Made by a program: the position numbers and the translations under genes. A stretch of 64,000 nt of DNA, taken from NCBI GenBank assembly GCA_000004985.1, contig GG738849.1; one strand, 5' to 3'. Shown in pieces: positions 12,060-61,240 of the stretch. Each line of letters begins with the position of its first letter. The first letter of the stretch is position 1. This stretch comes from Naegleria gruberi. Lineage: Eukaryota. Under the pieces are notes generated by a model that saw only the letters and a program-made list of their open reading frames with translations, was not told the DNA's origin and made no database searches.

Positions 12060-15000
12060 GTGATAACATTCATAATAATTTCATTACCAATTTATAACAA
12101 TATCATCAACAACAAATTGGAAATAATAGAAAACAAAAAAGCAAGAAATGATTTTGAATTTACTAAACCCCAATATAGTGTTACTTTGGAAACAATTCTA
12201 GATTATTGTAGAATGGTTAATGATATCCTTCCAGAGGAGGCAGGCATCTGTCTAGGATTACAACATCATGGCAGTGAAATTTTAATGACAAATGATTGGA
12301 GTTGGGAACAACAAACTTTCCTTTCTGTATGTAGTATTAATTTACATTTAATAGATTTAACCAATAACAAGATTTCAAACAAATTATCAACAGAGTTAGA
12401 CAATTTATATGGAACTAGTGCTGAGATTGAAAAAAAGACCACTCCTTCTCCCTACCCCACAACAAAACAATTGGAACAATTATGTCAAAATATATTTTCT
12501 TGTTTATTTTCACATGGAGACATCAAGGCAAAAGAAAAGAGTCAACTCAATATTAACTACTCATTCAAGGTTATATTTATTACCAAGTGCGTATCAACTC
12601 CTGGAATAGATAATGAATTGAAGAGGAATTTTATCTTACCCCTTGCTTCAATTTTTGAAAAGCAATTTGAACTTTTCAAGAATGAAGTTAGAAATTTCAT
12701 GTCCCAACCTTTGGACAGTGGATCTGCTTTTACAGTTTTGGAAAATCAAAGAAAAGCCCAACTGTATAAACTCTTCTCCACATTCGACGAAGAAGAACTC
12801 AGGAAGGTGACCTGTACATTGGATTTAATTGAACCTTTGGTTGAAAATTTCCTGATAGAGGCATGTCCCGATATTGACCCAAATCAACCATTGAAATTCA
12901 ATTGCTCATCCCTTACTCCAAATCTTCCTCTCGAGTCTTTATCAACAGAGCCAATTTCTTCTCTATTGAGAACAACAAGACCAGTGGAGAATACTAGATT
13001 TTGGCAGGTTGAACGAGATTCAATGGAGAGAGTTATTAGAGAAAAAATTGCTCAAAAGCAATACGGACTAATACTAATTTCTGTTCAGGGAATTCCAATG
13101 AGAGATGCTTGCTCTGAGGGTACCAACAATTATGATGTCTTGTTAGCTTGTAAAGGGTTGACTGTGGATATTATTCAGGATGTGTCTGTTTCATCGGGAT
13201 CGATCAACTTGAGATGGGTTAGAGCTGATCCAAAGAGAAGCATTGAACATTTGTACACTACCAAATCTGTTCATAGAATCACACCAATGACTCCCTACAC
13301 ATTACCAACTGTTTGTCTGATGAGACACTTGTCAACTAAAAAACCTGTAGCACTAATTTATGAATCAGAGTATAATCTGGCACATAATCATTCACCAACA
13401 CACTTGATTTTACAACACGGTCATGATGTATACTTACATGTATTACATTTGAATAAGGTCTTCCAACCTTACACTGACATTATTCAAAATGAAGAAAATA
13501 ATCTAAGGTATAGAACTCATGAATTTATTGATATTGTGAATAATCACCTCTTGAGGGTAAATGTAAAAAGAGATTTAGCTAGGGAAGGTACCACCATTCA
13601 AGAAACAGAGAAAGAAAGCCTTATCACCCTTATGAAACATAACAATTGTGTGTATAGTGTCCCATCAAGTATCGAAAGAGGCACCAGATATTTCCCACTT
13701 GCTGCAGATGATAGTTCTGTTCTATTTTGTGAAAATGCAAGAGAAATCTATGCAACATTATTTTCCAAAATTATTACCCCTTTAATGGATATTCTTTTGA
13801 GAAAAGCTCCAGAATATGTCAATGATCAAGATAAGATCTATGTAGAAAAACTATTGGAATCATTGTTCGAATTCTCGAGAGGAAATGATGAACAATTAAT
13901 ACCAGAATTGAAAAACGATCATACCAAACGTTGGAATTCTTATAGAAAGATTTGGGGAGAATTAAGAGCATTCTTCCTAACAATAGGATATAAGGAATTT
14001 ACTGCTGTCATGGATAGATTGTGGCCACAATTCCTGTACGATAAGCAACAACAAGGAGACGACAGCACAGGCAGAAGAGCAAAGAGAGTGGTCGAAGTTC
14101 AAAGAGACAGATATGGAGCTGTCATTTTCCCAATTCCACTAGGAGCGTTGACAGTCCTCTCGTTAGGCAAAGTAATTTATGATAGACCAAATTATCATAC
14201 TGACAAGTATATTTGGCCTGTAGGATATAAGAGTACTCGTTATTATACTAGTGTAAAGGATACCAATAGAAGATGTCTCTATACTTGCGAAATTAAGGAT
14301 GGAGGTGAGAGTCCAATATTTGTCCTCTCCTCTGACGATAATCCTAATGATATTATTGAAGCTCCAAGTGCTACAGCAGCATGGACAGCAATTGTAAAAC
14401 AAATCAACAAAATCAAGAGCGAAGAATCTGGAAAGAGAGTGTTTACTAATGTGAGTGGACCTGAATATTTTGGACTGGCCCACCCAACAATCATGAAACT
14501 CATTTCACAACTACCAAATGCTGAAAAGATTAATCGACCAAATTATGCACCAAACCAACCTGTCAAGACAGAGTCATCTATTAATGATCCTAATGCAAGC
14601 AGTGATGATGAGAATATCACACCTCCCTCTGCAAACATGACCCCAAGCGCTTCAAGCCTTCATCCATCAGTATCACAAACAAGCCTTTCCAGTCAACTTC
14701 AACAAGCAACGCCAACACTCTCAGCCTCACCTGAAACCAATAATGGAGATGCACAAACACCAGATCTTGCCAGAAAGAGAGCAAAGAGAAATGAGCAAGT
14801 TCATTACGAAAGAGATACAACAAGAAGTGAAATTCAAAAGGTTTCATGGTTGCCAAACATGAATCTTGCTCAATTCTGTGAAAATAGAAGTAACAAGTTG
14901 GTTGCCAAACCAATGGATGGCGAGAATGAGGGTGAGAAGGGTCTCTACTCTTACCTAAACCTTAATAATGCAAATGACAGATCAAGTAATCAACAAGGTT

Positions 15001-15101
15001 CATCTTCAAATGCCAATCATCAACAAGGTTCCTCGAATCATTATGGATCCAATCGAAATAGAAAATATGGTCAAAAACGAAAGTTTGCACTTTATCAATA
15101 A
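12060..15101 (+). CDS. FYR (FYRN plus FYRC) domain-containing nuclear protein with a low-complexity S/N/Q-rich C-terminus. The start codon and any upstream exon are uncertain.
   Basis: FYRN/FYRC signature RVVEVQRDRYGAVIFPIPLGALTVLSLGKVIYDRPNYHTDKYIWPVGYKSTRYYTSVKD..RRCLYTCEI..GESPIFVLSSDDNPNDIIEAPSATAAWTAIVKQINKIK..SGPEYFGLAHPTIMKLISQLP. Confidence 0.7.
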   Translation: MITFIIISLPIYNNIINNKLEIIENKKARNDFEFTKPQYSVTLETILDYCRMVNDILPEEAGICLGLQHHGSEILMTNDWSWEQQTFLSVCSINLHLIDLTNNKISNKLSTELDNLYGTSAEIEKKTTPSPYPTTKQLEQLCQNIFSCLFSHGDIKAKEKSQLNINYSFKVIFITKCVSTPGIDNELKRNFILPLASIFEKQFELFKNEVRNFMSQPLDSGSAFTVLENQRKAQLYKLFSTFDEEELRKVTCTLDLIEPLVENFLIEACPDIDPNQPLKFNCSSLTPNLPLESLSTEPISSLLRTTRPVENTRFWQVERDSMERVIREKIAQKQYGLILISVQGIPMRDACSEGTNNYDVLLACKGLTVDIIQDVSVSSGSINLRWVRADPKRSIEHLYTTKSVHRITPMTPYTLPTVCLMRHLSTKKPVALIYESEYNLAHNHSPTHLILQHGHDVYLHVLHLNKVFQPYTDIIQNEENNLRYRTHEFIDIVNNHLLRVNVKRDLAREGTTIQETEKESLITLMKHNNCVYSVPSSIERGTRYFPLAADDSSVLFCENAREIYATLFSKIITPLMDILLRKAPEYVNDQDKIYVEKLLESLFEFSRGNDEQLIPELKNDHTKRWNSYRKIWGELRAFFLTIGYKEFTAVMDRLWPQFLYDKQQQGDDSTGRRAKRVVEVQRDRYGAVIFPIPLGALTVLSLGKVIYDRPNYHTDKYIWPVGYKSTRYYTSVKDTNRRCLYTCEIKDGGESPIFVLSSDDNPNDIIEAPSATAAWTAIVKQINKIKSEESGKRVFTNVSGPEYFGLAHPTIMKLISQLPNAEKINRPNYAPNQPVKTESSINDPNASSDDENITPPSANMTPSASSLHPSVSQTSLSSQLQQATPTLSASPETNNGDAQTPDLARKRAKRNEQVHYERDTTRSEIQKVSWLPNMNLAQFCENRSNKLVAKPMDGENEGEKGLYSYLNLNNANDRSSNQQGSSSNANHQQGSSNHYGSNRNRKYGQKRKFALYQ

Positions 15102-36931: not shown

Positions 36932-39454
36932 TTAGAAAGTTTGTTGGTGATCTTCTGCAAATATGCCAATTTTTCTCTTTACTCTGTTTAATAGAGCCTC
37001 TTCAATAGAGCTTGTTCCATTGACATAAAGTTCTTCTACCCATAATATTTCATTTACCCAAGGAGAAATAATTTGATTGTCTATAAGATATTCCACAATT
37101 TCCAATATTTCCATCTCTAGTTTTTGATTAATGCTTACTCGGTAAAGAATTTGCAAATGTTGCACCAGTTTTGGAGCTAGTTCAGCCATATTTCTTCTGT
37201 CTATTAAACAAGTGGAAAAGGCGTTAACATATAATTCGTCTAACTTGTCAATATGAGTTGAACCTTGTTTAAAGTTAGTAAAGCATTCTATTGTTTCAAA
37301 CATAGCATTGATTGATTCATTCAAAATTACAAGAGATCTCTCACCACCATTAAGAGCAACATCGTTTCTAATAATCCTATTACATGCCCAAAAAGCTTGC
37401 GACATTTTATCCACGATTATATTAGGAATCCAAAGCATGTCATCTTCAAAATCTTCCATATCAGCAATCTCCTTAATAATTATTGGCAAAATGTAATCAT
37501 AGATAAAATCCTTCTTTCCTCCTTCATTGATAGAATTATTAGTCAACATGTCCATGGAGAGATGAGTGTGTAATATTCCAATTTCACTCAAAGTTCCAAG
37601 CAATGTGAATAGTGAATGATATTGTGTGTATGCAAATGGATCTCCAATCTTAATGAGAATTCGTATTAGATTGGCAAGAAATGAATAGGAGTGTTTGTTG
37701 AAAGCTTCAAGTAGAGCTTTTCTTTCTATCCATCTGCAAATTTCTATCAACACCACCGTAAGTGGCACAATCATTGAATTAAACAGTTCCTGTATGCTGT
37801 AGCTTGACATTTCTTCTGTCTTTTCCTTAATATAGGAAAGAAGTTTCTCACATAGTACATTATCATTAATTAATTGAAATGCGTTTCCGATTAAGAGGAG
37901 GCATTGATTAATATTCTTCTTATGTAGGTTTGTTTTTTCTTCCTCGTTTTCAACTGTTAAATATTCCATCGTTTCATTCACACACACAGTTTCGAATAAA
38001 TTGTTAATCTTGAATTTCAAACCTTCCAAAATTGATTCACTAATTTCTGATTTGCTAATATTCAGACTGTTAGTAATGCCTTTCAACAAGGCACAATAAT
38101 CTGTGATATCATTACTACTCAATTCATGAGATTTAATGATACAATCAAGTAAATCATCAGAATAATAATTAGTTTTTGAAAAGAAAAGACCAAGGGCCTT
38201 CTTGGTGACTAATCTTATATCCCTATTCTCAGAGGAGAGTAATTTCTTACAAATTTGAATAATTGCAGAGACTTGATTCTTAACATTTTGAGTTTCAATC
38301 GAAGATAAATCAATTAGAGAAATACTGTCGAGAGCTGTTATGATAGATCTTTTTGCCAATAAATCTCCACTCTCCAACTCACTCTGTTGTTGCAAAGTGT
38401 CAAATATGAAATCCTTAAAGAGAGCTGCTACGTAAGATTTGTTTTTAAAGGCAGAAGGATCTTGTTTACAATCATAGTTCAATATATTACTAATCATTCG
38501 TAATATTTTGTGTTTGATTACCCAAACAGTCTTTCCATAATTATTTCTAATTCTTGGAAATAAATTTTCAGATATAATGGTAGAATCATCTTTGGTGTTC
38601 TTGATTTGTGCCAAATCATTCTCCATCATATCTAGAATGCATTTTGCAAAATTAATTGACAAGTGAAACAATTTTCCAAGTAATGTGAATAATTTTTTTG
38701 TAACATTTGTCTTCTTCTTTGTAGAACTAGCCTCAGCAAAGTTATAGAGACAAAAAATGAAATATCGTGCCAGTAAAAGACCGAAAGCCTGATTTTTGTA
38801 ATAGTTTTTAGCCTTAAGTTCATAATCATCCTCTGTAGGTGTTGTTATATATTCAATAAATTGATTCCAATAATAAAAGAGATCGGTCAATAACCAACTA
38901 TTTGCTCCTGATAAATAACTTTCAGGATTTTCTTTCAACAATTGATTCTTTCTTTCCAAAAAGTAATTAGAAACCGTTAACAATAGAAAACATGGTGGAA
39001 ATTCAGTAAATCCGACATGTGAAATTGGTTTTCTACACTTTAAAACTTCAGCATGCACCTTTACAATAAAATGTAAAACAACTTTTTGCCAATTCTCCAA
39101 ATTATCAATTCCACATTCGAATGGTTCCACTTCGGCACCTTTCCTCACCTCTTGATAAATATGGTTTGCACAACGAAAGAATTGGGGTATAATTCTCTCC
39201 TCTGCATAATCCATAAATTGACAAAACTCTCTCACTTCACAATTCATCCAATTACACGAAATGGCTGTGGAAAGGTAGTAATAAATTAGAATAATCATTT
39301 TCATGCAAGCTTGTTGCTCAGTATCCGAATCATATACTTCCGAATATACTTTCAACTCATTTTCATCACACAACTTTCCTANNNNNNNNNNNNNNNNNNN
39401 NNNNNNNNNNNNNNNNNNNNNNNNNNNNNNNAAACACGATTTGTTACAAGACAA
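36932..39454 (-). CDS. Large hypothetical helical-repeat (HEAT/ARM-like) protein. The CDS is interrupted by the assembly gap near its 5' end, and the true N-terminus lies beyond 39454.
   Basis: 840-aa ORF with alpha-helical repeat composition. The X-run in the translation coincides with the N-run 39382-39431. Confidence 0.5.
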   Translation of the reverse strand: MSCNKSCXXXXXXXXXXXXXXXXXXGKLCDENELKVYSEVYDSDTEQQACMKMIILIYYYLSTAISCNWMNCEVREFCQFMDYAEERIIPQFFRCANHIYQEVRKGAEVEPFECGIDNLENWQKVVLHFIVKVHAEVLKCRKPISHVGFTEFPPCFLLLTVSNYFLERKNQLLKENPESYLSGANSWLLTDLFYYWNQFIEYITTPTEDDYELKAKNYYKNQAFGLLLARYFIFCLYNFAEASSTKKKTNVTKKLFTLLGKLFHLSINFAKCILDMMENDLAQIKNTKDDSTIISENLFPRIRNNYGKTVWVIKHKILRMISNILNYDCKQDPSAFKNKSYVAALFKDFIFDTLQQQSELESGDLLAKRSIITALDSISLIDLSSIETQNVKNQVSAIIQICKKLLSSENRDIRLVTKKALGLFFSKTNYYSDDLLDCIIKSHELSSNDITDYCALLKGITNSLNISKSEISESILEGLKFKINNLFETVCVNETMEYLTVENEEEKTNLHKKNINQCLLLIGNAFQLINDNVLCEKLLSYIKEKTEEMSSYSIQELFNSMIVPLTVVLIEICRWIERKALLEAFNKHSYSFLANLIRILIKIGDPFAYTQYHSLFTLLGTLSEIGILHTHLSMDMLTNNSINEGGKKDFIYDYILPIIIKEIADMEDFEDDMLWIPNIIVDKMSQAFWACNRIIRNDVALNGGERSLVILNESINAMFETIECFTNFKQGSTHIDKLDELYVNAFSTCLIDRRNMAELAPKLVQHLQILYRVSINQKLEMEILEIVEYLIDNQIISPWVNEILWVEELYVNGTSSIEEALLNRVKRKIGIFAEDHQQTF
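39382..39431. other. Assembly gap (50 N).
   Basis: Run of n characters. Confidence 0.95.
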
Positions 39455-39599: not shown

Positions 39600-42500
39600 T
39601 TATTTGGATAGGAGAGTTTCACAAATGTCTTGGTCAATTTGGTTATATTTCAACAAGACTTCTAAAATGAGAATAATCTTTTTTAGGGAAGGTCTTTGGT
39701 TAGGATTCAGTCTTGTCATTTGTTGGAGGAGACCAATTAAGAGTTGTTCATTTTGATGTGAACAGTAGTAAAAGGATTTTTTTAACTTTTCCATATTTGG
39801 TGTAGTATTTAAGGAAGTTTCATTGGATGCATTGAATGGAGTTGAGGAGGAAGGGTTGATTCTTTCAGAGCTTGGAGGAGAAGCCAAGAGAGAGGAAGCA
39901 GACATTGGAGAACTTGTTTCAGAGCTTGAAATTTTGACGAAACCATCCGAATGGTGATTAATGGAAGAATTGTTGGAAGGATTATGAAGTCTTGGAGAGA
40001 TTAAGTGAGGAATAGCTTCACTCTTCAATAAACTCATGTGAATTTTGGAAGCCATGATTTGATGAGTGAGTTTTTCATCTCTTGAGATTGCTTCCTCAAT
40101 CGAAACATATTCGAAATTTGTTGCATTGGTTTGAATAGTTGCACTTTCTAAATTATTTCCAACAGTAGTATTAGAAGAAGATGCAATACCATCTGTTTGT
40201 CCAGTACCATTCAGCAATTCTTGATGGTCAACTTCCTTCTTAATTATTACAGTTGTAGTTGAGGTTGGAGACGAAACTGTTGAATTATCTGAACTTTCAC
40301 CATGTTGATGCAAATTAGACAACCTAATAAATGATTCCTTTGTAATGAGTTGATAAAAAACACATCCCAATCTGAAAATATCATCCTTCTCATCCAAATA
40401 TCTTTCAATATCACCATCAAAATTTAACTTTTCTTGATTATTGACATTGGATGACATTATTTCACGCAATACCATTTGTTTTCTTAAAGTAGAATGATTA
40501 GTACTTGAAGTGGTTGATGTTGGTGTTGTAGATCTAATAGTAGACCATTCATTTGAGTGTTGCTTGTTGTGATATTGTTCCATCACTTGTCTGTTTTTAA
40601 ATTGGACAGTTCCATCAAGGATTGAAAAATCCCAAGGTTTAAACCAATCAGTGAGTTTCACATTGAGATTTGACTTGTGTTGATCACCCAATAATGTATC
40701 ATTCTCATCAAATGCCTTAATAATTACTGATTTCAATTCTTGTTGCTTTGCTTCTGACAAACTATTCGAAACACTATTATCAAACAATAACAAATCAGCC
40801 TTAAAATCACTACCAGCAGGTGTTACACACGACTGAGTCGATCTAAAACTTGAATCTTTCTCTTCATTATAATTCATCAAAATCTTTTCCAATTTCAATG
40901 AAGGAAAAACAATCGAATTCTGATGCAAATGTGAAAGACCTTTCGTTGACTGCAAACAAACATCAATCAACTCTAAATAATTCATGAATCGATGATTTCT
41001 AATCATAAATTCAACTCTCTTCTCCAAATTGGAACCATTCATATAGGGAAGTTCAATGAAAATTTCAAATCGTTCAGATCTACATCTTCTAATGGTATAA
41101 TCAGAGAATGTCATGACATTTGGATGTTTTGGAAATAGTATCATGGACTCGACACCTTTACCAACTTCTGTTAAATCTGATTTTGTGAAATTTGTCAAAT
41201 GTTTCAAAGCACAGAGTGAGCTTGTCTTGACTTTGACAGATTTGTAAATTTTAGAGTGGTGATTGGAGAAAATTCTCTTCAGAATTAGATATCTATTACC
41301 AAGTACATGAGGTCTAATTCTTCTCTCAAAACCATAACAGTCAATTGGGGAAGTGACATGTTGGAGAAGGAATTTCATTAACATTTCAACTTCATTTCCT
41401 CTCTTGAGATGAATCTTCTTCTCCATCCAATCTACCATTCTAATTACTTGATCTTCAACCAATTCTTCCAAACTTGCATATTCTTTCACTTTCTTTTTCA
41501 CACTTTCGAATAAATTCTTCAAATTTAAAATGAAATTCCATTCATCCTCCAAAGAAACCATAAAAGTTCCATCATATAACTGTTGATTCTGTTCAGAATA
41601 TAATTGTTTAGCAAATGTAGCAATGAAAATTGCAAAAATCAATCTCTCATTAATTTCCCTCTGATAATTTTCATCACTTTTTGTAAACATCATTTGGAGA
41701 ATATTCTTCTTTTTGAGTGGAATGTCAAATAGGAAGGAGAGAATTTGTTGTTCATTGTGTGGAGTTACTTTTTGTTTGAGTTTGAGTTTGACATTTCTAA
41801 AATCAAATCTTTTCAAACAAATTTCAATAACTGGACAAGTGACTTGATAAGATTCAAAATGATCGACTAGGAATTCAACTTGTGCAAGTTCCCTTTCATC
41901 ATTAATTGGTGTATTCAAACAATAACCATGAACATTCAAATTAGTAAAAAGTGCCTTGACAGAATTCATCACAATATTATACGAATCTTGATTTGGTGGA
42001 ATGTAATTTTCAATTATGACTGCTTGCTCACCACTCTTCTCAGATCCACTCCAACTACTCCCCAATTGACCTGTCAAATATTGTGCATTAGTCAATTGTT
42101 GTGGTTTCACTGCACTATACCTCAAATTACCTCCTTGAACAATTTCTCTCAACAAGTCATGAAAAATTTCCTTAACTTTTTGTTGAATTAAACTTTTTGG
42201 TTCATCACTATTCATTTCAATGAATGGAACGTAATAGTAGAGTGATTTTTTTAATCCTTCACGTTTGGAAACTTGTCTTTCTTTACCATTTTGAGAAGTT
42301 ACAAAGATGGAGGAGGATGAGGAATTGGATCGAAGTGAGGTTGAGTGATGTTTGTTGTTGGTTGTGTTTGATAGGATGGTTGTTGAATTATTGTTATTAT
42401 TCCAGTATTTGGTGGCACTGGAAAGTGAAACAATTGAGGCTTTTCTTGAGGAATCGGATAGATCGGCATTGTCTTGCATCAATTGACCACTTGTACTTGT

Positions 42501-43886
42501 TGAACTCTTGAGATTCATTAAACTTGTAGCTGTCAATGGAGATGGTTGATTAGTGATTGGTGTTGTGGTTGAATTCTGTTGTTGTTGTAATAGGAGACTT
42601 GTTGTGGAAGGTGGTGAACCAGCATTACTCTTATTACTATACTCAATTCCAACAAGAACCATTGAAATGGTACCTCCCTCTTTAGCTCTATAAAGCTTTT
42701 CGTATAGAATGTCAACTTGTTGGAAACTTCTACGACTTGCAACATTGTAAACTATGAGAAAACCATCACATTCTTTGAGACATTGATCCATCATGTTGAC
42801 AAATTGCTCATAGATGTCATAAAAGAAGAGTTCTAATTGGTAGGGTTTTCCACCAAAATCGAATTGTTTCTTCATAACGGTTTCGTCAGAGTTGGTTGAC
42901 CTTTTGACTTCTTCTTGCAAGAATTCAGCTGCAATGAGAGAATCTGATAAATCTTCACCTAGAATGGCGATTTTGTAAACTGGATATTGTTCAGCTGTTT
43001 TGGTGACTTCTACAATAGCAGAAGATGGTCGAGGAGATTCTTCTGGTTCAGTTTTGGTTTCTCCCTCATCATTCTTATAGAAACCAAACCATTTCTGGTA
43101 GAAACTCAATTCCTTCTTAATTTCCAACTTGATTGGCTCTTCATGAGTTGTGGCTGTTTCTTCAATTTTCACTTCACTTTCGTTCGTAGGATTACTATTA
43201 GAAACCAGCATTGGAGGTGGTGGAGGCTGTTGAACATTCGAATCTTGATAAACATCTTCCAGTTTAATCAAATCATCATCTCTAGAACTAATTGCATGTC
43301 TTCTAAGATCTTCTCCATCTTGTTCTTGCTCATCTTCACTTTCATCTTCGACATTATTCTTTGATTGAATGTTAATATTGGCAGATGTAGTATTACTTGT
43401 CAATGGTTTACCAAAATCAATAATATCCTCATCATCAATCTTGAATTTAGTCAATTGAACACTGTCTCTACTCGTTTTAGTTTCTAGTGTTGCAGTTGAC
43501 TTGTTACCTTGTTTCTTATTCTTTTTCTTTTGAAAAGTTGTTGCACCACCAGCACCACTAACCACATCAGTTGAACTATTAGCTTTATGAATATATCGAG
43601 AGAGAAAGTTATTCTTCTTTGATTTCAATTCCTTCTCAAATTGAGATGTATCATGAACAGTTGGAGAACTTTCCATTGGAAGAGTTTTACGAGTCAATTG
43701 TTTGCCTGAATTGTTCTGCAGCTGTTGATCATCCTCTTCTTCTTCTTCAGAGGAGTAGGCTGAATTTGAAGATGAAGTCTCTTCCTGTTCATCACCAGAT
43801 TCAATGAGAATGATTTCTTCCTCAGCAAGTATTGAAGACATTTTTTCTTTTGAATATATCTGAATTGGAAAATCTTTCAACAACAT
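39600..43886 (-). CDS. Giant 1428-aa protein with an acidic N-terminus, a degenerate Ras-like small-GTPase domain (no intact P-loop), and a C-terminal protein-kinase-like domain whose catalytic motifs appear degenerate (candidate pseudokinase).
   Basis: Ras-like fold segment YKIAILGEDLSDSLIAAEF..KPYQLELFFYDI..DGFLIVYNVASRRSF..MVLVGIEYS lacks GxxxxGK[ST]. The kinase-like region (YLILKRIF..IYKSVKVK..CALKHL, then LSHLHQNSIVFPSLKLEKILMNY, DFKADLLLFD) lacks a clean HRDxxxxN/DFG. Confidence 0.6.
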   Translation of the reverse strand: MLLKDFPIQIYSKEKMSSILAEEEIILIESGDEQEETSSSNSAYSSEEEEEDDQQLQNNSGKQLTRKTLPMESSPTVHDTSQFEKELKSKKNNFLSRYIHKANSSTDVVSGAGGATTFQKKKNKKQGNKSTATLETKTSRDSVQLTKFKIDDEDIIDFGKPLTSNTTSANINIQSKNNVEDESEDEQEQDGEDLRRHAISSRDDDLIKLEDVYQDSNVQQPPPPPMLVSNSNPTNESEVKIEETATTHEEPIKLEIKKELSFYQKWFGFYKNDEGETKTEPEESPRPSSAIVEVTKTAEQYPVYKIAILGEDLSDSLIAAEFLQEEVKRSTNSDETVMKKQFDFGGKPYQLELFFYDIYEQFVNMMDQCLKECDGFLIVYNVASRRSFQQVDILYEKLYRAKEGGTISMVLVGIEYSNKSNAGSPPSTTSLLLQQQQNSTTTPITNQPSPLTATSLMNLKSSTSTSGQLMQDNADLSDSSRKASIVSLSSATKYWNNNNNSTTILSNTTNNKHHSTSLRSNSSSSSIFVTSQNGKERQVSKREGLKKSLYYYVPFIEMNSDEPKSLIQQKVKEIFHDLLREIVQGGNLRYSAVKPQQLTNAQYLTGQLGSSWSGSEKSGEQAVIIENYIPPNQDSYNIVMNSVKALFTNLNVHGYCLNTPINDERELAQVEFLVDHFESYQVTCPVIEICLKRFDFRNVKLKLKQKVTPHNEQQILSFLFDIPLKKKNILQMMFTKSDENYQREINERLIFAIFIATFAKQLYSEQNQQLYDGTFMVSLEDEWNFILNLKNLFESVKKKVKEYASLEELVEDQVIRMVDWMEKKIHLKRGNEVEMLMKFLLQHVTSPIDCYGFERRIRPHVLGNRYLILKRIFSNHHSKIYKSVKVKTSSLCALKHLTNFTKSDLTEVGKGVESMILFPKHPNVMTFSDYTIRRCRSERFEIFIELPYMNGSNLEKRVEFMIRNHRFMNYLELIDVCLQSTKGLSHLHQNSIVFPSLKLEKILMNYNEEKDSSFRSTQSCVTPAGSDFKADLLLFDNSVSNSLSEAKQQELKSVIIKAFDENDTLLGDQHKSNLNVKLTDWFKPWDFSILDGTVQFKNRQVMEQYHNKQHSNEWSTIRSTTPTSTTSSTNHSTLRKQMVLREIMSSNVNNQEKLNFDGDIERYLDEKDDIFRLGCVFYQLITKESFIRLSNLHQHGESSDNSTVSSPTSTTTVIIKKEVDHQELLNGTGQTDGIASSSNTTVGNNLESATIQTNATNFEYVSIEEAISRDEKLTHQIMASKIHMSLLKSEAIPHLISPRLHNPSNNSSINHHSDGFVKISSSETSSPMSASSLLASPPSSERINPSSSTPFNASNETSLNTTPNMEKLKKSFYYCSHQNEQLLIGLLQQMTRLNPNQRPSLKKIILILEVLLKYNQIDQDICETLLSK

Positions 43887-44051: not shown

Positions 44052-46121
44052 TTATTGCTTTTGTTGAGAAACTTCCCTGAATAATTTGAAAATATCACCA
44101 TTAATATAGTCGTTATCAACAACATTGATCAAGTACCATTCGTCAGAAATTGTCTTTAAGAGAGTATGAGCTTGAGATCCTTCTTCATATAAAGACAACC
44201 AGTGAGTATCCAAAATTTGGAAAGCTTCATCCTTCCAAACTAAGAAAGCATTACTATCAACAACAGTTGGTTGAAGAATTTGTTGAGCTGGGAAAACACC
44301 CCAAGTGACAGCATTCACATAATTATCACCTTGAATATTGGTCTTGACTCTTCCATCCTTTGTGAGAGCTTGATAAGTAACCATTGGATACTTTTCCTTG
44401 ATAATATTTTCAAGAGTTTCAAGATGTTGTGGTGAAATGAAACATTCAACGTAGGCCTTTTGATAGATAAATCCATTCAATGGTCCCCAACCAACAGAAT
44501 CATCAGATGATGAAACACCATTAACCTTTGGTTGAGAATTGGTAGTCAAGAAACCATTCTTATTGAGTTCAATCAATTCATTCTTAATAATATTGGTTTC
44601 TGGAGAGGTAGATTGTTCATTCCATGGAAGGAATGGAATCTTTCCTTCAATAAAGTTAACAAAAACTTGTGAAATTGATTCCAAATTAGCATGTTCAGCA
44701 CCCCAAGCAGCAACAATATTTTCCTTTTCACCAAACTTTCTTCTATAGAAATAGGCAATTTCTTCACCCAATTCACCAAATGCAGGTGATCTAGAATCAC
44801 TCCAACGTCCATTAGGGAATTCATCCCAATGTTGAGTACGATCAATGTATGATTTAACACGATTAGACCAAAAGATTGGACGAACTTCTTCAGCCAAACG
44901 TTTAGCATTAGCAGGTTTAACCCAAGGTAATGATCTTGGAATACTTTCCTTTGGTGAGAGTTCCAATCCTTCAAGAATAGCTTCAGTACTCTTTTCCAAA
45001 TTGAGAGTATAGAAATGGAGTCCACGAATACCATTATCCATCAATGCTCTACAAATAGTGATACATAATTTGATACCATAGGCCTTAACTTCATTATCAT
45101 CTTCCAAATTAAGTTTAGCCATTTCATCATGAACATTTTGTGGAATACTTGTTTTACAGAAAGTGGTCATTCTTTGCCAAGATGCATGATTGTTAATTGG
45201 CATAATACCTGGAATAATTGGACATTTAATTCCGATTTCTCTAGCTTCCTTAACAAACTTTAAGAATTGTTGCCAATCGTAGAACAATTGAGTAACAACA
45301 AAATCTGCTCCAGCATCATACTTTTCCTTCAAGTACATTAAATCCTTTTGATAATCTCCCTCTGGGTGACCTTCACTGTATCCAGCACAAGAAATACCAA
45401 AGTAATCACCATGAGTCTTTCTAATGTGTGAAATTAAATCTCTAGCATACTTGAAACCACCATCAGTTTGTTCCCAATCTTCACTTCCAAGAGGTGGATC
45501 TATATTGTTATATAATAATATATATCATGGTATTGTTAATATTGTTATTATTAAATTAGTGTGTTATTAAATTATTAAAAAAGATCATCATAGTATTATT
45601 ATTATTATTAGTGTAGCATTGGTTTGTAATGATAACAATGATGACAATGATGATGAAGAATGGAATTGGTGACACACATTTAGTTATTAACAAGCAACAA
45701 TAATAAATTATCATTAACACACATATAAATAATAATAAAACAAACCTCCTCTCAAAGCCAAAATATTAGAAATACCCATATCCTTTGCAGTTTGAATAGC
45801 CTTGTCCAATTCTTCAACCTTCATATTAGTACAAGTCATGTGAATTTGAGTTTCAACACCAATCATATTTTGAGCAGTTGCTCCGATTTCAATTGTTTTA
45901 CCAGCAGTACTACCACCAGCTCCCCAAGTAATATCAATAAACATTGGAGCAAGTTTGGCCATACGTTGCAAACGTTGATATAAATTTTCAACGCCTGCAT
46001 CAGTTTTAGGTGGGAAATATTCGAATGAATAAAAGGTCTTGTTTTCTTCAATGCACTGATTGATCTTGTCAATAATCTTCATGTTGTTGTTGTTGTTAGA
46101 TGTGAAGAAGGCTTGGTTCAA
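44052..46121 (-). CDS. MTHFR: Methylenetetrahydrofolate reductase (MTHFR), catalytic TIM-barrel plus the eukaryotic regulatory C-terminal domain. It has two exons (45746-46121 and 44052-45499) and a 246-nt intron.
   Basis: Exon 1 has FYSFEYFPPKT..DITWGAGGST..ILALRG. A phase-1 splice (gtttgt..atatag) continues DPPLGSEDWEQTDGGFKYARDL..YLKEKYDAGADFVVTQLFYD..HFYTLN, then the C-terminal regulatory domain. Confidence 0.92.
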
Positions 46122-46483: not shown

Positions 46484-48748
46484 TTAGGGAATTCTTTTAT
46501 CAAACATCATGTAACGATCGGGGAAGTTTGGAATTACATTATTTGGATCTTGCTTGTAAGCACACAAATTTTTAGCTGCATGACCAATGATTGTGATTGA
46601 TATCAATAATTTGAGAAGGAATAAGCATAAAAATCCAAGCAATGTTATGATAATTGGATAAATTACTTTGGAAAGAGAAGGAATGGCAATTAATGTCTCC
46701 AATGAATCCCAATTATTACTATATCCAAGAACAGCCACAAAGTGAAATAGCCATGGTAGCATTACTTCCATAATCATTCGAAGGGTGTGAGTGATGAGTG
46801 GGCCTTCCAAAAATCCCAATCTTCTTGCAACCTTACTTCTATTTGTATTGTGAAAGAAGGATGAGACAACCACTGAAGTTGTCTCACTCTTTTTTGCTGA
46901 ATCAGAATGAGATATCAAGTCGTCACATAACTTGAGAGTGTACATTCTAAATGTTGATGGATGAATGCTGTTAAACTTGGAGACAAAGGTATGCTTGAGA
47001 GTATCTACTAAAATCTCAGCACAAATCATGAATATGAAAATATGACCAAACTCTTCCAACTTGTCGTCGAGGAAGGAAAATAGTGAGCTAGAGCCTTCCA
47101 GGTTTGTCATAGTTTCAAAGTCATTCAAGTCAACTCCTTCAACAGGCCCAGAGGTTGAATCCACAATTGTTCTCAATGTGTTTTGTACAAAGATCAAAAT
47201 AGTAAACCAAAAAATCTCAAATCTTTCCACTACATCACTACTAGCTAGTTGGAAAAGATTCTCCTTTGTAAATCTCTTGAATACACTACCCTTCAATTCT
47301 ACAAAGTTTGTCGAGATAATCATTGTAAGAAGAGTGTAATTAGAACTATTCAGGGCTGCATTTAAGGTAACAATTCTAATCAATTGTACAATACTATGCA
47401 CATAGAGATAAATCATGTGGAATATGAACATTACTGTCATGTGCCCAAATTCTTTCCACGACCCACTCCTATCATTCAATATACCATTGACAAATTGTTT
47501 GGAAGAATAAAGGAGAGCTATTTGTGAATCTAGACCGAAGGAGGAACACAACTTGTCAAATACATCCAACATATTACCAATCACGTACAACTTTAAAATT
47601 GATTCTCCTCTAATGTAGTGATACAGTAGTGAATAGTCAGTTGTTTGCATGATGAGAATTATATTAATGACGAGGCAGAAAAACTTCACCAAATCAAATA
47701 GGACTGACTCATTCACACTCGGTTTTAATCTGCTATTTCCATTACTCATCTCTCTTAAACATCCTCTAAATGGTAATAGTATAATATATTTTACAATGGA
47801 CCAAATAATTCTCCACAATGATAAAAACACTCTCACAGGAAAGAAGGTCAAATAAAATAGAAATGTGTCCAAACAAATGAAAAATCCAAAGAATAAAAAT
47901 CTCTCCACTCTAATGGGTATCTCAATAAATTTGTACAATTGACCTCTCAATTCTTCATCTGTGAAACAATTATCTTTTGGATCGTGTGATAATTTGATAA
48001 ATCCATTTGGAAAATTATATGGTTTTCCATTTAGAGAACTTTGAGAATTATCACATATTGGTGTTGATTGAGTACTTGTAGGTGTTTCTGCGGACATTAT
48101 AACATCATTAGTAGATTTTCCTTCAGAATTTGAAATTACATTGGGCGAATTTCTTGTTGTCACATTCAATTCTCTGTGCAGATATCTCAAAAAACTATCA
48201 AACCTCTGTAATGGCATTTTCTTTTTCGATTTTAGTTGATTTTCTTCAATGTGTGGTGTTGCTAAATTCAATCGTTCAGAGATTGATCTCGAAGTTGTAT
48301 CAATATTTGGAGATTGCAATGTGTTGCAACCACTATCACTCCCATTGTCACTCGAAGCGGAAGGAGGAGTAAATGGTGAAGTGAGTGATTTTTTCCTCAA
48401 TCTTGTTGTGTTATCAATATTCAAACGAGGTGATGGAGCATCTGAAAAATCAAACACAATTCTTTCTGAAGCTGTTGATTCTCCACCAATTTGTACAATC
48501 TGAATAGGTGATGTTCCACTAGTACTATTATCAATCACGTTATTACCACTAATCAATAATGAATTATTCCGAATATTATTATTACTAATCAAAAAATCAA
48601 TCTGTTGTCCTTCTTCTCCTCCGATCAACCTTTTATCATTGTTATTTGTATCAATCCCATCCCGATCATCCAATTCTACTTCTTCTTCAACAATCCTACC
48701 AAAATTCATCCTAGTACCACTTGATAGATTGGGTGAGTTTGGTGTCAT
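46484..48748 (-). CDS. TAPT1: TAPT1/EMP65-family (DUF747) multi-pass membrane protein.
   Basis: Conserved core IRGESILKLYVIGNMLDVFDKLCSSFGLDSQIALL and multiple TM helices. Long low-complexity N-terminus. Confidence 0.8.
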   Translation of the reverse strand: MTPNSPNLSSGTRMNFGRIVEEEVELDDRDGIDTNNNDKRLIGGEEGQQIDFLISNNNIRNNSLLISGNNVIDNSTSGTSPIQIVQIGGESTASERIVFDFSDAPSPRLNIDNTTRLRKKSLTSPFTPPSASSDNGSDSGCNTLQSPNIDTTSRSISERLNLATPHIEENQLKSKKKMPLQRFDSFLRYLHRELNVTTRNSPNVISNSEGKSTNDVIMSAETPTSTQSTPICDNSQSSLNGKPYNFPNGFIKLSHDPKDNCFTDEELRGQLYKFIEIPIRVERFLFFGFFICLDTFLFYLTFFPVRVFLSLWRIIWSIVKYIILLPFRGCLREMSNGNSRLKPSVNESVLFDLVKFFCLVINIILIMQTTDYSLLYHYIRGESILKLYVIGNMLDVFDKLCSSFGLDSQIALLYSSKQFVNGILNDRSGSWKEFGHMTVMFIFHMIYLYVHSIVQLIRIVTLNAALNSSNYTLLTMIISTNFVELKGSVFKRFTKENLFQLASSDVVERFEIFWFTILIFVQNTLRTIVDSTSGPVEGVDLNDFETMTNLEGSSSLFSFLDDKLEEFGHIFIFMICAEILVDTLKHTFVSKFNSIHPSTFRMYTLKLCDDLISHSDSAKKSETTSVVVSSFFHNTNRSKVARRLGFLEGPLITHTLRMIMEVMLPWLFHFVAVLGYSNNWDSLETLIAIPSLSKVIYPIIITLLGFLCLFLLKLLISITIIGHAAKNLCAYKQDPNNVIPNFPDRYMMFDKRIP

Positions 48749-54308: not shown

Positions 54309-56216
54309 ATGGATGAAATTAACCTTGATGATTTTGCAATAAAAAATGACTCAAGCCCGTCCGATATTGTAGATAGATTGGAAATTCCTCTTCACACCAA
54401 AAATCACCATCAACAGAATAGTTATAGTGAGGAAAATTTATTAAATAATTTAAAGCTGGCCTATGAATTTTCCAAACGATTAATCCGAACTTCACTTGGA
54501 CCATTCAGTAAAGATAAACTAATTGTCAAGGGTGATTTACAAAAAAGCATCCTTGTTACGAATGATGGACGAACGTTAATGGAGGAAATGTTCAAATTGA
54601 GATCTCTCAATGAGAATAGAGAACAACATCCAATTCATACACTACTCTATCAATTATCAAAAAATCAAGACAATACAGTAGGTGATGGAACAACTAGTGT
54701 TGTCGTCTTGTGTGGAGAAATGTGTAAATTATCTGTGGAATTGATTGAAAAATGGAATTTGAGTGTAGATAAGATTATGAAAGGTTTTCAAAAAACTTTG
54801 GATTATATTTTAAGAGAATGGTTATCTGTTTTTACGAAACCATTGAGAGAGGTTGACCCAACAGAGAGCTCTTTAAAAGCTAGTAGATTTTTAAACCTTT
54901 CAAAAATCAAAGATTTAACACAGAGTGATATTGAAAAAATTGCAGCTAAATCATGCCTCCTTTCCAAACAAGTGAAAAATATTTGTGAGGAACTCAGTTC
55001 AATAGCAGTGGAAGCCATTCACGCTACAGCAGGCAAGCTTCATTTCATCAATGTGGACACTCTGATTATTGATAATCAAAATTTAATGAATCAACAACAT
55101 ATTGACAGTAGTACTAATGTAATTCTAATTGAATCTGGAATATGTTTGGTTGGTAAAAATTTGGCATCCAATTTGAATATGAAATTTTCAATGAGAGATT
55201 GCAGAATTGCTCTATTTTCATGTCCCATAGAAACACCTCGACTCAAGACACGACACCACATTAATATTACCAATTCAAAACAATATCAAGAATTGGAAGC
55301 TGTTGAAAATTCCTACCTTGAAGAAGTTATTTCAATTCTGAAGAATTGTAATGTAAATATAATAGTCTCACAATGGGGATTCGATAATAGATTTCATGAT
55401 TACCTAGTTGAGAACAACCTTATTGGTATAAGGTGGGTTGGTGCCGATGAATTGGATAGAATTGCTCTCGCTACAGGTGCCTCAATTTGCCCACAAGTGG
55501 CTCACTTTACTGAAAATATGCTTGGTTATGCTGGAAAATTTGAATATCAGGAGGGTGACAAGTTAATGACCTTTACTGAGTGCATAGAACCAAAAGTTTG
55601 CTCAATCCTAATACGATCCTCAAATGAGTTTCTTGCCCAAGAAACAGCTCGTTCCATGAATGATGCGCTAATGAGTGTTCGATCCGTATATTCTCACCTC
55701 TCCAACAAACACAATGTGTTAGAAAAGAACTCTGAAGACAATTTGGAAACTCTCTCCCTTATTCCTCCATTAAGCTATGGAGGTGGATGTTTTGAAATGC
55801 AAATTTATTCTCTCGTAATGGAAAATTTGGAAAAGATTGAACCAAATGATTTTCTCACTCAAACCATTGCCAAGCATTGGGCAAAAAGCCTTCTGGTTGT
55901 TCCATCTACATTTGCTGAAAATTCAGGACTCTCTGTAATTGAAACAATTCAAACTCTGATTGACAAGCATCAATTAGGAGAATATTATTGTGGACTATTT
56001 GCCAACTCATTCACCCAAGATGATCTATTGAGAGATGAGAAACTGATTGAGGAATATTCCAAACCTTGTTCAAATACTTGCAATTTTCTAATGCAAATTA
56101 AGAATATGAGCGAGACACAAGTTATGGAAAATATTCTTGTCAAGATGAATGTTCTCATTTTAGCAACTGAAATGGTTAATATGATTTTAAAAATTGATGA
56201 GAATATCATGTATTGA
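54309..56216 (+). CDS. Divergent TCP-1/cpn60-family (group II chaperonin-like) protein of 635 aa.
   Basis: Retains the CCT signature VGDGTTSVVVLCGEM and the equatorial/apical/equatorial order, but is otherwise highly diverged from canonical CCT subunits. Confidence 0.7.
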   Translation: MDEINLDDFAIKNDSSPSDIVDRLEIPLHTKNHHQQNSYSEENLLNNLKLAYEFSKRLIRTSLGPFSKDKLIVKGDLQKSILVTNDGRTLMEEMFKLRSLNENREQHPIHTLLYQLSKNQDNTVGDGTTSVVVLCGEMCKLSVELIEKWNLSVDKIMKGFQKTLDYILREWLSVFTKPLREVDPTESSLKASRFLNLSKIKDLTQSDIEKIAAKSCLLSKQVKNICEELSSIAVEAIHATAGKLHFINVDTLIIDNQNLMNQQHIDSSTNVILIESGICLVGKNLASNLNMKFSMRDCRIALFSCPIETPRLKTRHHINITNSKQYQELEAVENSYLEEVISILKNCNVNIIVSQWGFDNRFHDYLVENNLIGIRWVGADELDRIALATGASICPQVAHFTENMLGYAGKFEYQEGDKLMTFTECIEPKVCSILIRSSNEFLAQETARSMNDALMSVRSVYSHLSNKHNVLEKNSEDNLETLSLIPPLSYGGGCFEMQIYSLVMENLEKIEPNDFLTQTIAKHWAKSLLVVPSTFAENSGLSVIETIQTLIDKHQLGEYYCGLFANSFTQDDLLRDEKLIEEYSKPCSNTCNFLMQIKNMSETQVMENILVKMNVLILATEMVNMILKIDENIMY

Positions 56217-57905: not shown

Positions 57906-60900
57906 TTGATGATTGATCCATCTCAAAATTCAGAGTTAGAAACCTCTTTTAATTTACTTGATCAAGAAGAAAAGGAATTAATTGAACCTCATTATCACTT
58001 TATCCAAAGATCATCAGATTGGATTGAATTAATTCATAACAAAAAACCTCTCAACAATATGCCTCATCGGAACATGTATAATGACACTCCAAGTGATACC
58101 AGCTCAAATAATATAACTCCAAGTAATGCCAATAATGATGATTCACCAGACGTTACACCACTTCATATTTATCTAACCACCCACAAACATGGTCACCACA
58201 TGATTCATGCAAAGAAGGATCAACCATTTGCTCCATCCTTTTTAAATGATGCTGGCTATGAGAGTGGCAGTTCCTCAAATGACGATGATACTGCTCCATC
58301 GAGTGCCTGCGATGAAGTCACTCCAGCCATAACTACTCCTGTTCACTTTCTAACAGAACAACATCATCCCTATTCACCTACCACAATTAACAAATCTTCC
58401 TCAACTAAAGAGTTTCCAACAAGTCACAATCCAGATAATGTACAAAAGTAAGTTTTCCCTTTTTGTTCAATGGAACTAAATTTTCTTGTGATTTGATCAT
58501 TATTTGAAATTTAGAAAAAGGTCTCGAGTTGCTTCTTTACCAGTTACAAATCAACAAGAGAAACTTGTCACAAATAATAATAGCAAAGCAAATCATCCTA
58601 CTATTACTACCAACGATAATAATACTCCTTCTACCACCTCTACCACTTCTCAAACACCTCCAACAAATATTAATAATCCAACTGCTGGTATTCATCATAT
58701 TCAAAGCCAGCCAAACATGCTTTCCAATCAACCAATATCTCTTCTTTCTCAATCATTATTAAAACAAAGTGATGAACATGACTTTTATATGGTCAACGAG
58801 GAAGAAGTTACAAGTGCTTCTGCACTTATTGGAAAACAAAAATATTATAGCGAGGTTAATTTACCAAGTATGGACGTTTCTCCTCTCAAATCGAATGGTC
58901 AATCAATGAAAAAACCAATCATCAAACATAATATTGGAAAACATCACCCAGAAGGAACAGAATCTTGGCTTTTACCAGGGGAATGTGTTCTTAATCATAT
59001 TAAAAAGGTTGGAGTCGTTAAAAATCTCCCAATTACATACTTTCCTCCAACTCATTCCAACCCACAAGCAATTTCATCTCAAGGACCTTTTATTGAGCAA
59101 CCAAAACAAGCTTCTGGAGAATTTTTAACAACAGCAGAGGAATTATTGAATGATTTTAATGTTTATGACTTATTGAATACAGTAGGCGGATCTAGCTCAA
59201 ATTATGGAAGTGCTGGAAGTACTATTAGCACTAATGGTAATGCTACTTCCACTAATGTTGGTGATCAATCTGATACTGAGCCTACTCTTGTTATTGGCGA
59301 GTTATATATTACAAATTATCAAATTAGATTCCAAGTAAGTTTCTCAATTTTTTTTAGTTATTTTAACAATTAAATAGTGCGTTGCTAAACCATCTCTAGT
59401 TCTATCAACTCCAACATCTTGTATTCTTAGAATGGCTCCAAAATATCCACAATCAGAGACAAATACCTACAGCAACTATTACAGTCAATATATTTCATCA
59501 AATGCAAATAATGGACCTACCACTGATAACAAGTTTAATAGTCTTGGATATATTAGTATTAAGAGCAAAGATTTGCAGGTTTTGAAATTTTTATTCTTTA
59601 GAGATTCTTCCTATACAATTGACAAAGTTATGGAGGCCCTTAAAGCTGCTACCTCAAAGAGAGTGTTTGCATTTGCATTCCGTAAACATATTTCCTCCTA
59701 TCCAATTCAAATATATTCTCAGGAGGATATTGAAAAGGGATGGAAGGTTTACAAGATGAAAAGAGAATTTAAAAGACAAGGCCTTTTCACAAGACACCAA
59801 AATAATCCAGCTTTTTCTTGGCGTATTAGTTCTATTAACTCAAAATTCAAAGTTTGTGACACTTATCCAGAACATTTTATTGTTCCTAAAGATGTTTCAG
59901 ATGAAATGCTTGCAGCTTCAGCAGCTTTTAGAAGTAAAGGAAGAATTCCAGTTCTTTCCTGGATTCATCCTCATAAGAATATTTGCATTGTAAGATCGAG
60001 TCAACCTATGGTAGGTATCACAAGAGCAAGATGTAAAGAAGATGAAGAGTTAGTTGATGCCATCAGAAGAGCATCTGGATCAGAGAGACTTCAGATTATT
60101 GACTGTAGACCAAAGGCAAACGCTTGGGCCAATACAGTTATGGGAAAGGGTTATGAAAATATTGCATACTATACTAACTGTTCAATAGAGTTCATGAATA
60201 TTGAAAATATTCATGCCATGACTAACAGTCTTAATTTGCTAAAGAAATTAATTCAAAATAAGCAAAATAACGATCAATATTGGCTATCTTCTTTTGAGGC
60301 AACAGGATGGTTAAAACATACCAAGTTAATCATGCAAGCAGCTTCAAAGGTTGTAACTTATATTGAAAGATTTGATACATCAGTACTTGTTCACTGTAGT
60401 GATGGATGGGATCGTACCGCACAAATCTGCGCACTTGCAGAGCTTTTATTAGACCCTTATTACAGAACTATTAAGGGATTTGAAATTCTAATTGAGAGAG
60501 AGTGGGTTTCTTTTGGTCACAAGTTTCTAGATCGTGTAGGACATGGATGTGTTGGAAAAACTAATTCAGCCTCTGATGAAATTTCTCCTGTTTTTTTACA
60601 ATTTATTGATTGTGTTTGGCAAATTTGGCAACAATATCCTTCACATTTCGAGTTTAATGAGGCGTTCCTCTTCTTAATATTGGACAGTTTATATTCTTGT
60701 CGTTTTGGAAACTTTTTATTGAATTGTGCTAAACAACAGCTCGATGAAAATATTACAAAGGATACTATTTCGGTTTGGACAGAAGTAATGACAAACCCTT
60801 CTCTGTATTATAACGATGTTTATAACCCAAAGAATAGCGAATATTCAACATTAATTGTAAATACCGACATTGACACACTCTCCACACACTTTTGGATAAG

Positions 60901-61240
60901 CTACTTTTATCGATACAAGAAGGGTTCAAAGAACAGATATCACAGAATGCTCAAAAAGGCTATCACCAAGATGAAGAAGGAAAATGCAATTCTCTTGAAT
61001 TCTTTACAAGAGGAACTGTTGACAAGGAAGAGAATTGAGCTAGAGTTGGCCCAATCCAAACAAAAAATCAAATTTCTCGAAGGTCATAATTCATTAACTG
61101 ATGAATCCCACATAAGTGATTCGTATGGAAGTCATCCTGCTTCTGACACTTTAAGTTACAATGGTGAAGATGGAGACACGAAAGTTATTCGCTTCTCAAC
61201 CAGTGTGAAAGAAAATCTGGTGGAAAATTACTTTAAGTAA
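57906..61240 (+). CDS. Myotubularin-family phosphoinositide 3-phosphatase (catalytically competent) with a GRAM domain. It has three exons (57906-58447, 58515-59334, 59378-61240) and introns of 67 and 43 nt.
   Basis: Active site VHCSDGWDRTAQ (C-x5-R) with flanking myotubularin motifs (RIPVLSWIHP, LIEREWVSFGHKF). The GRAM-like LLPGECVLNHIKKVG..GELYITNYQIRFQ is split by the second intron. The N-terminal exon is low-complexity. Confidence 0.85.

Follow-up and report, generated by a model that had tools for sequence, protein, structure and literature searches.

A Naegleria and Willaertia protein that unites a Ras-like and a kinase-like domain, both lacking catalytic residues, with a conserved helical domain

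We analyzed a 64,000-nucleotide stretch of Naegleria gruberi DNA (GenBank assembly GCA_000004985.1, contig GG738849.1; hereafter the window), in which a gene on the minus strand encodes a protein with a Ras-like and a kinase-like domain. Judged by sequence, both of these enzyme-like domains are missing residues on which catalysis depends in their families, and this holds for all four species in which the protein was found (N. gruberi, N. fowleri, N. lovaniensis, and Willaertia magna). A third conserved domain, at residues 641-860, was overlooked in an earlier prediction made from the letters of the sequence (the original prediction), which had drawn a two-domain picture. The explanation that we favor, with a probability of about 0.6, is a double-pseudoenzyme scaffold or allosteric adaptor specific to the Naegleria-Willaertia lineage.

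Both domain assignments lie well above chance. Pfam Ras (PF00071) matched residues 317-414 with 37.4 bits against a cut-off of 21.6 (43.6 bits for the isolated segment), and the Ras-like landmarks first pointed out by eye are all present: YKIAILGED at residues 304-312, LELFFYDI at 351-358, LIVYNV at 377-382, and LVGIEYS at 411-417. A Ras-core profile built from the four species matched M-Ras in the PDB with E = 3e-16. The nearest solved relatives were M-Ras, Rap1b, H-Ras, and Rit1, and no Roc chain was found among the 60 best PDB matches listed. A metagenomic Ras protein (P0006) matches the same core with 29% identity. In a low-confidence model, with a predicted local distance difference test score (pLDDT) of 50-65, strands and helices follow the Ras order β1-α1-β2-β3-α2-β4-α3-β5-α4-β6-α5; together with the profile match, this order identifies a G domain of the Ras superfamily. 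The whole domain covers residues 300-597 and is split by a low-complexity insert of 116 residues, which occupies the position of the NKxD (G4) loop between β5 and α4.

The motifs G1, G3, G4, and G5 of functional small GTPases are degenerate in all four species. At G1, GAGGVGKS of H-Ras aligns with GE-DLSDS, with one residue deleted; the predicted absence of GxxxxGK[S/T] is therefore real. The P-loop Lys16 is replaced by Asp in N. gruberi and W. magna and by Glu in N. fowleri and N. lovaniensis. DTAGQ (G3) aligns with YDIYE, or with FSPGE in W. magna, where a four-residue deletion follows directly; NKxD (G4) aligns with IEYS, VESS, or IEYL; and SAK (G5) aligns with MNS (N. gruberi), MHG, or INA. 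Conservation is lacking in switch I, where the orthologues have insertions of about 30-60 residues. H-Ras and Rap1B served as references in this alignment; HMMER's own alignment to M-Ras agrees with it. A class-i pseudoGTPase is a G-domain fold that does not bind nucleotide. Because the P-loop is shortened, an acidic residue stands in place of the phosphate-binding Lys, and NKxD and SAK are absent, we infer that this domain is a class-i pseudoGTPase, predicted to be unable to bind guanine nucleotide.

The kinase-like domain is recognized by Pfam Pkinase (PF00069) with 40.3 bits against a cut-off of 31.7 (48.7 bits for the domain alone), and PF07714 also matches. The profile match runs over landmarks of the N-lobe and the C-lobe, as expected of a protein kinase fold. 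Its closest solved kinases by profile are all distant: STK16 (1.6e-11, both lobes), NEK1, AAK1/BIKE/GAK, B-Raf, TNIK, and Wee1. Members of the NAK group (STK16/AAK1/BIKE/GAK) scored from 1.6e-11 to 3e-7, and NEK1, B-Raf, TNIK, ULK2, and Wee1 scored similarly. Four low-complexity inserts interrupt the domain (residues 1009-1065, 1101-1154, 1191-1261, and 1296-1371). The ranges first proposed, about 300-450 for the GTPase and about 830-1100 for the kinase, were too small, as the two domains extend over residues 300-597 and 861-1428. Kinase motifs were read from HMMER alignments to Pto, TNIK, and STK16 and from a MAFFT alignment with two database kinases as well as PKA and CDK2.

In these alignments, the catalytic loop is as degenerate as had been quoted: the landmark HLHQNSIVFPSLKLEKI lies at residues 986-1002, and HRDLKxxN aligns with FPSLKLEK, FPTLKxEK, or LVNLKPDK, so that HRD reads FPS in N. 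gruberi and FPS, FPT, FPT, or LVN by species. The position of the catalytic Asp is thus taken by Ser, Thr, Thr, and Asn across the four species, and the Mg-binding Asn is replaced by Lys (Lys1001) in all of them, with the catalytic-loop Lys998 kept. The Gly loop (GxGxxG) reads FSNHHS in N. gruberi and xxNHNG in the orthologues, which retain the third Gly only; two to three glycines are lost. A canonical DFG is indeed missing, as the motif reads DWF or DWI across species, but its Asp is always present and the VAIK Lys is kept too. Glu913, invariant as well, is no more than about two positions away from the αC Glu and is probably its equivalent. The C-lobe retains its structural residues (GDIExYLDxKDDIFRLGC and NPxxRP), among them the subdomain IX Asp and the subdomain XI Arg. 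Invariant in the four species are K895, E913, K998, D1080, D1169, and R1398.

By the standard definition, a pseudokinase is a kinase fold that lacks at least one of the VAIK Lys, the HRD Asp, and the DFG Asp; here, the HRD Asp is lost and the other two are retained. Since the catalytic Asp and the Mg-binding Asn are absent and the Gly loop is degenerate, the domain is predicted to be incapable of phosphate transfer. The pocket may still bind ATP, because the β3 Lys, the probable αC Glu, the catalytic-loop Lys, and the DFG Asp are invariant.

A full-length homology search identified orthologues in N. fowleri (FDP41_003237, 1598 aa) and N. lovaniensis (C9374_000087, 1492 aa). This search covered the 8000 candidates sharing most words, which were presumably dominated by low-complexity sequence; two passed the E-value cut-off. 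The Willaertia magna orthologue (KAL9645879.1, 1298 aa) shows 40% identity. In the window as in N. fowleri and N. lovaniensis, the gene is directly preceded on its strand by one for MTHFR. This synteny is not conserved in Willaertia, where RCC1-like genes lie upstream, and the evidence for orthology there consequently comes from the shared architecture and the unique middle domain. Across both genera, the alignment of the four proteins stays colinear where the motifs are degenerate, and the genes of N. fowleri and W. magna are single exons; this excludes the possibility that intact motifs have been displaced by an unseen intron or indel.

Selection was assessed by a Nei-Gojobori codon comparison of N. 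fowleri and N. lovaniensis, in which synonymous divergence (dS) was 0.5-1.0 in the regions compared. The ratio of nonsynonymous to synonymous divergence (dN/dS) was 0.09 in the Ras core, 0.10 in the kinase core, 0.14-0.19 in the low-complexity inserts and the linker, and lowest, at 0.021, in the middle domain. The whole gene is under purifying selection, which is strongest on the helical domain. As the degenerate motifs are common to all four species, the shared sequences show that the losses of catalytic residues were fixed before the Naegleria-Willaertia split and represent a stable state, not decay. The proposal that both catalytic centers are dead is thus supported by motif losses in four species under purifying selection, but it is tempered for the kinase, where the ATP-contact residues are invariant.

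In the conservation profile, the middle domain surpasses every other part of the protein; it ends about ten residues ahead of kinase strand β1. An exhaustive HMMER search with its profile against 1.84 billion representative proteins returned the orthologue group only. No match was found in Pfam, by sequence profile in the PDB, or by fold for its predicted model. An AlphaFold model of this domain alone reached moderate confidence, with a predicted template modelling score (pTM) of 0.65, 12 helices, and 123 residues at a pLDDT of 70-90; the domain was all-α in both AlphaFold runs.

If the favored explanation is correct, a disordered acidic N-terminus with two motifs, a G domain derived from Ras/Rap, a helical orphan domain of about 220 residues, and a kinase fold would be combined in one signaling protein. 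The nucleotide-free G domain would provide a fixed surface for protein-protein interaction and no switch, and ATP would be a structural or conformational ligand of the pseudokinase, as in pseudokinases of the JAK JH2, HER3, ILK, or STRAD type. The invariance of the β3 Lys, the DFG Asp, and the catalytic-loop Lys suggests that the kinase pocket is still in use. The helical domain, which abuts kinase strand β1, would couple the two dead modules, and the Ser/Thr-rich inserts and the N-terminal motifs may be docking or phosphorylation sites that recruit active partners.

Several points weigh against this explanation. The inactivity of the two domains is deduced from motifs alone, and the role as a scaffold is likewise inferred. 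A rewired active site would explain equally well why K895, K998, and D1080 are strictly kept together with the second Asp in DWFKPWDF, and among kinases of unusual active-site architecture, WNK, CASK, Haspin, SelO, and POMK have proved active. The AlphaFold2 model of residues 297-1428, made from a four-sequence alignment, has a mean pLDDT of 34, at which the geometry of both pockets is unreadable; its only usable features are the Ras-like order of secondary structure and the all-helical middle region. Finally, no relative or paralogue with intact motifs was found in searches with the Ras and kinase cores, which depended on a word index and were of limited sensitivity; spliced core profiles gave marginal kinase matches (a plant receptor-like kinase at 2e-5 and a leucine-rich-repeat kinase at 7e-4) and one canonical Ras at 9e-9.

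The strongest alternative, although we consider it unlikely, is that the kinase domain is an atypical active enzyme whose site has been rewired, be it a protein kinase or an ATP-dependent transferase of another kind, and that the nucleotide-free Ras-like domain merely regulates or targets it. The invariance of K895 (β3), E913, K998, K1001, D1080, W1081, and D1086 exceeds what a pure scaffold needs, the kinase core has a dN/dS of 0.10, and WNK, CASK, and SelO were themselves supposed pseudokinases before they proved active. However, the residue in place of the catalytic base differs between species (Ser, Thr, Thr, and Asn), which would not be expected of a functional catalytic residue, the Mg-binding Asn has become Lys in every species, two to three glycines of the Gly loop are missing, and no structural model showed a replacement base. 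A slightly less likely alternative places the functional core in the middle domain, as an unrecognized enzymatic module or one resembling a GTPase-activating protein (GAP) or a guanine nucleotide exchange factor (GEF), with the dead domains as regulatory or substrate-mimicking appendages. This domain is the most constrained region of the protein; neither profile nor fold matched it to RhoGAP, RasGAP, RasGEF, Sec7, TBC, RGS, or DH.

The resemblance to ROCO proteins (LRRK1/2, the Dictyostelium Roco kinases, and bacterial Roco) lies in a small G domain upstream of a kinase fold, with a conserved domain between the two. ROCO proteins need GTP binding to function, and LRRKs need kinase activity as well. 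In the N. gruberi protein, by contrast, both centers lack catalytic residues and the G domain is of the Ras/Rap type: its best matches are to M-Ras, Rap1b, H-Ras, and Rit1 and not to Roc, and Pfam assigns it to Ras. Pfam, PDB profile, and fold searches detected neither a COR domain directly C-terminal to the G domain nor a RasGEF or other regulator domain. The comparison initially drawn with ROCO and Ras-GEF-kinase proteins of amoebae therefore did not hold, and Naegleria is a heterolobosean, not an amoebozoan. In addition, Roco proteins are reported to be absent from Naegleria (Herman et al., PMC8296547, Additional File 4). For these reasons, ROCO membership was rejected. A highly degenerate Roc-COR-kinase protein, with a COR domain diverged beyond recognition, would share the order of G domain, linker domain, and kinase seen in LRRK-type ROCO proteins, but we regard it as improbable on the above grounds. 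Lastly, a pseudogene in decay, or unrelated pieces fused artificially by annotation or assembly, could be suspected from the long low-complexity stretches, the degenerate motifs, and an N. lovaniensis gene model with false introns or a frameshift, yet it is effectively refuted by the reading frame intact over 4.3 kb, the identical colinear architecture in four species and two genera, a dN/dS of 0.02-0.19 in every region, and the single-exon genes of N. fowleri and W. magna.

Pseudokinases and pseudoGTPases are both established kinds of signaling module, and known examples of each resemble one half of the favored scaffold or adaptor. CENP-M is one class-i pseudoGTPase; further examples are pG1/pG2 of p190RhoGAP (PMC5593906) and AAGAB (PMC12490416). 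The likeness to these is a G fold with motifs too degenerate for nucleotide binding to be expected, and such domains are constitutive interaction modules. The Naegleria domain differs in its origin from the Ras/Rap subfamily, in its 116-residue insert at G4, and in having a pseudokinase in cis, its nucleotide-free state being a prediction from motifs. Compared with Ras, Rap, and M-Ras themselves, which give the best sequence matches for the core and have an equal order of β-strands and α-helices, it lacks G1, G3, G4, and G5 as well as a C-terminal CAAX, and it is embedded in a protein of 1413 aa. On the kinase side, JAK JH2, HER3, and ILK are pseudokinases that lack the HRD Asp and keep the β3 Lys and the DFG Asp. 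They share with the N. gruberi domain a retained kinase fold, a lost catalytic base, and preserved ATP-contacting residues, and they act by allostery or scaffolding (pseudokinases are reviewed in PMC8141879 and PMC10211241). The relationship to them is at the level of the kinase superfamily only, and the Mg-binding Asn replaced by Lys, the DWF motif, and the four large inserts are additional differences. A second, unrelated fusion of a G domain to a kinase in Naegleria is Gpa22 (N. gruberi XP_002672374.1), in which, according to PMC8296547 (Additional File 10), a protein kinase domain is joined to a G-alpha subunit.

The gene itself is already catalogued, as Naegleria "RasGTPase6" (Herman et al. 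2021, BMC Biol 19:142, PMC8296547, Additional File 10 Table S8). The entry records the domain combination only, and the passages searched say nothing for RasGTPase6 on lost catalytic motifs, the middle domain, a Willaertia orthologue, or selection. NCBI labels the product (XP_002681848.1) "predicted protein", and UniRef names it automatically as a "non-specific serine/threonine protein kinase". A literature search found no paper text mentioning the accessions of the gene, and searches on Naegleria with pseudokinase and on pseudoGTPase with pseudokinase found nothing about the protein. Within this limited search, no prior description of a pseudokinase, a pseudoGTPase, and an orphan domain in one polypeptide was found, and we regard the combination as new.

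The predicted length of 1428 aa corresponds to an uninterrupted open reading frame (ORF) of 1428 codons, along which residues are numbered here; the annotated protein starts at Met16 (Table 1). The G+C content of the ORF (0.32-0.36) is similar to that of the remaining window. Because the database protein begins at Met16 (43841) and the N-terminus from there (MSSILAEEEIILIES) resembles that of the W. magna protein (MSSLESSDSEGEVILVD), the start was placed at this residue; the first ATG of the ORF is probably not the start, which leaves codons 1-15 (43842-43886, minus strand) outside the protein. Another ATG lies further upstream, at about 43960 (MDEQVNNSP...). It was weighed as a possible extra exon and rejected, since its frame differs from that of the ORF and the database protein begins at Met16. 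The N-terminal motifs 1 and 2 are kept across the four species though their surroundings vary, and both are candidate docking motifs; the consensus of motif 1 is LT[KA][FY]xI[ED]D[ED]DII[DN]FG[KR]PLTS in all four.

Table 1 Features of the RasGTPase6 gene and other genes of the window (positions in the window)
Feature	Position	Strand	Basis or remark
Complete uninterrupted ORF	39600..43886	-	1428 codons + stop (stop codon 39600-39602)
Annotated coding sequence from Met16, 1413 aa	39603..43841	-	Exact match to XP_002681848.1 / EFC49104.1 / D2V2R0 / NAEGRDRAFT_63086
Acidic, low-complexity, poorly conserved N-terminus, residues 16-296	42999..43841	-	Conservation profile; D+E 0.20
Short conserved motif 1, SVQLTKFKIDDEDIIDFGKPLTS, residues 142-164	43395..43463	-	Four-species alignment
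Short conserved motif 2, ELSFYQKWFGF, residues 259-269	43080..43112	-	Core SFY[QK][KR]WF
Ras-like domain, N-terminal part, residues 300-418 (β1 to β5)	42633..42989	-	PF00071; PDB M-Ras/Rap1b/H-Ras
P-loop remnant GEDLSDSL, residues 310-317	42936..42959	-	One residue shorter than GxxxxGK[ST]
Insert of 116 aa, Ser/Thr/Asn/Gln/Pro-rich, residues 419-534	42285..42632	-	Composition 0.64 STNQP
Ras-like domain, C-terminal part, residues 535-597 (α4, β6, α5, conserved GGNLR..VKP tail)	42096..42284	-	Alignments
Orphan all-α middle domain, residues 641-860	41307..41966	-	Conservation profile, dN/dS, model
Kinase-like domain, residues 861-1428	39603..41306	-	PF00069/PF07714; PDB matches; PKA and CDK2 alignment
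Gly-rich-loop remnant FSNHHS, residues 873-878	41253..41270	-	Orthologues [AS][DSE]NHNG
VAIK equivalent CALK, residues 892-895	41202..41213	-	Lys895 (β3) invariant
Catalytic-loop remnant IVFPSLKLEKI, residues 992-1002	40881..40913	-	HRD reads FPS
DFG equivalent DWF, residues 1080-1082	40641..40649	-	Asp1080 and Trp1081 invariant
Subdomain VIII/IX block GDIERYLDEKDDIFRLGC, residues 1158-1175	40362..40415	-	Nearly invariant; APE-like Glu and subdomain IX Asp
ELP3 (radical SAM) gene	6197-7867	+	
Gene for FYRN/FYRC protein with Mat89Bb match	12060-15101	+	
DUF747 (eukaryotic membrane protein family) gene	46484-48748	-	
TCP-1 chaperonin subunit gene	54309-56216	+	
Myotubularin-like phosphatase gene	59432-61240	+	

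Some further observations concern the gene models and the surroundings of the gene. The N. lovaniensis model C9374_000087 switches frame twice near residues 151-241 (L002 about 6300-6700, PYSW02000009.1), and the motif LTKYEIEDDDIIDFGRPLTS in that species is encoded in another frame than the upstream part of the model; these frame changes point to false introns in the model or to an assembly frameshift. In N. gruberi, a protein of 151 aa (XP_002668191.1, P0008, NAEGRDRAFT_76900) on a 36-kb contig is identical to residues 1278-1428 of RasGTPase6 and is probably a haplotig or a duplicated assembly fragment. The same fragment represents the 90% cluster to which the full-length N. gruberi protein belongs, presumably the reason why the latter was missed in the homology searches.

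The MTHFR ORF of the window (44052-45338, minus strand) contains only positions 163-286 of the catalytic-domain profile and the S-adenosylmethionine-binding regulatory domain. The N. fowleri MTHFR product has 595 aa, and the N. gruberi gene presumably continues upstream across an intron. Downstream, the gene order differs: genes for GGACT and V-ATPase subunit a follow the kinase gene in N. fowleri and N. lovaniensis (L001/L002 10849-14296). The ORF downstream in the window (36932..39454, minus strand) encodes at least 815 aa, has no Pfam match, and includes an assembly gap, a run of 50 N at 39382-39431. The five other genes of the window in Table 1 (ELP3, FYRN/FYRC, DUF747, TCP-1, and myotubularin-like) are ordinary eukaryotic housekeeping or signaling genes.

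The domain combination of RasGTPase6 is modestly interesting and reveals no new principle, and its occurrence in few taxa limits its impact. A bolder and rather doubtful version holds that the Naegleria-Willaertia lineage independently evolved a ROCO-like machine of G domain, linker, and kinase out of a Ras/Rap-type GTPase, and that this machine was frozen afterwards: GTP switching would have been abolished, a pseudokinase that kept ATP binding would be the sole nucleotide-responsive element, and the helical domain, of unseen fold and the most constrained part, would couple both. If true, this would be the first described natural pseudoGTPase and pseudokinase in cis around a new fold. For the Naegleria catalogue, the analysis is a refinement: despite its UniRef name, RasGTPase6 should be listed neither among the working GTPases nor among the working kinases. 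The orthologue FDP41_003237 of the pathogen N. fowleri belongs to a family known only in Naegleria and Willaertia and has no close human counterpart. A conserved protein with a dead Ras domain, a dead kinase domain, and a more constrained orphan domain would be a compact natural system for the reuse of dead enzyme folds, and it raises the questions of whether the kinase pocket senses ATP and what the nucleotide-free Ras fold binds.

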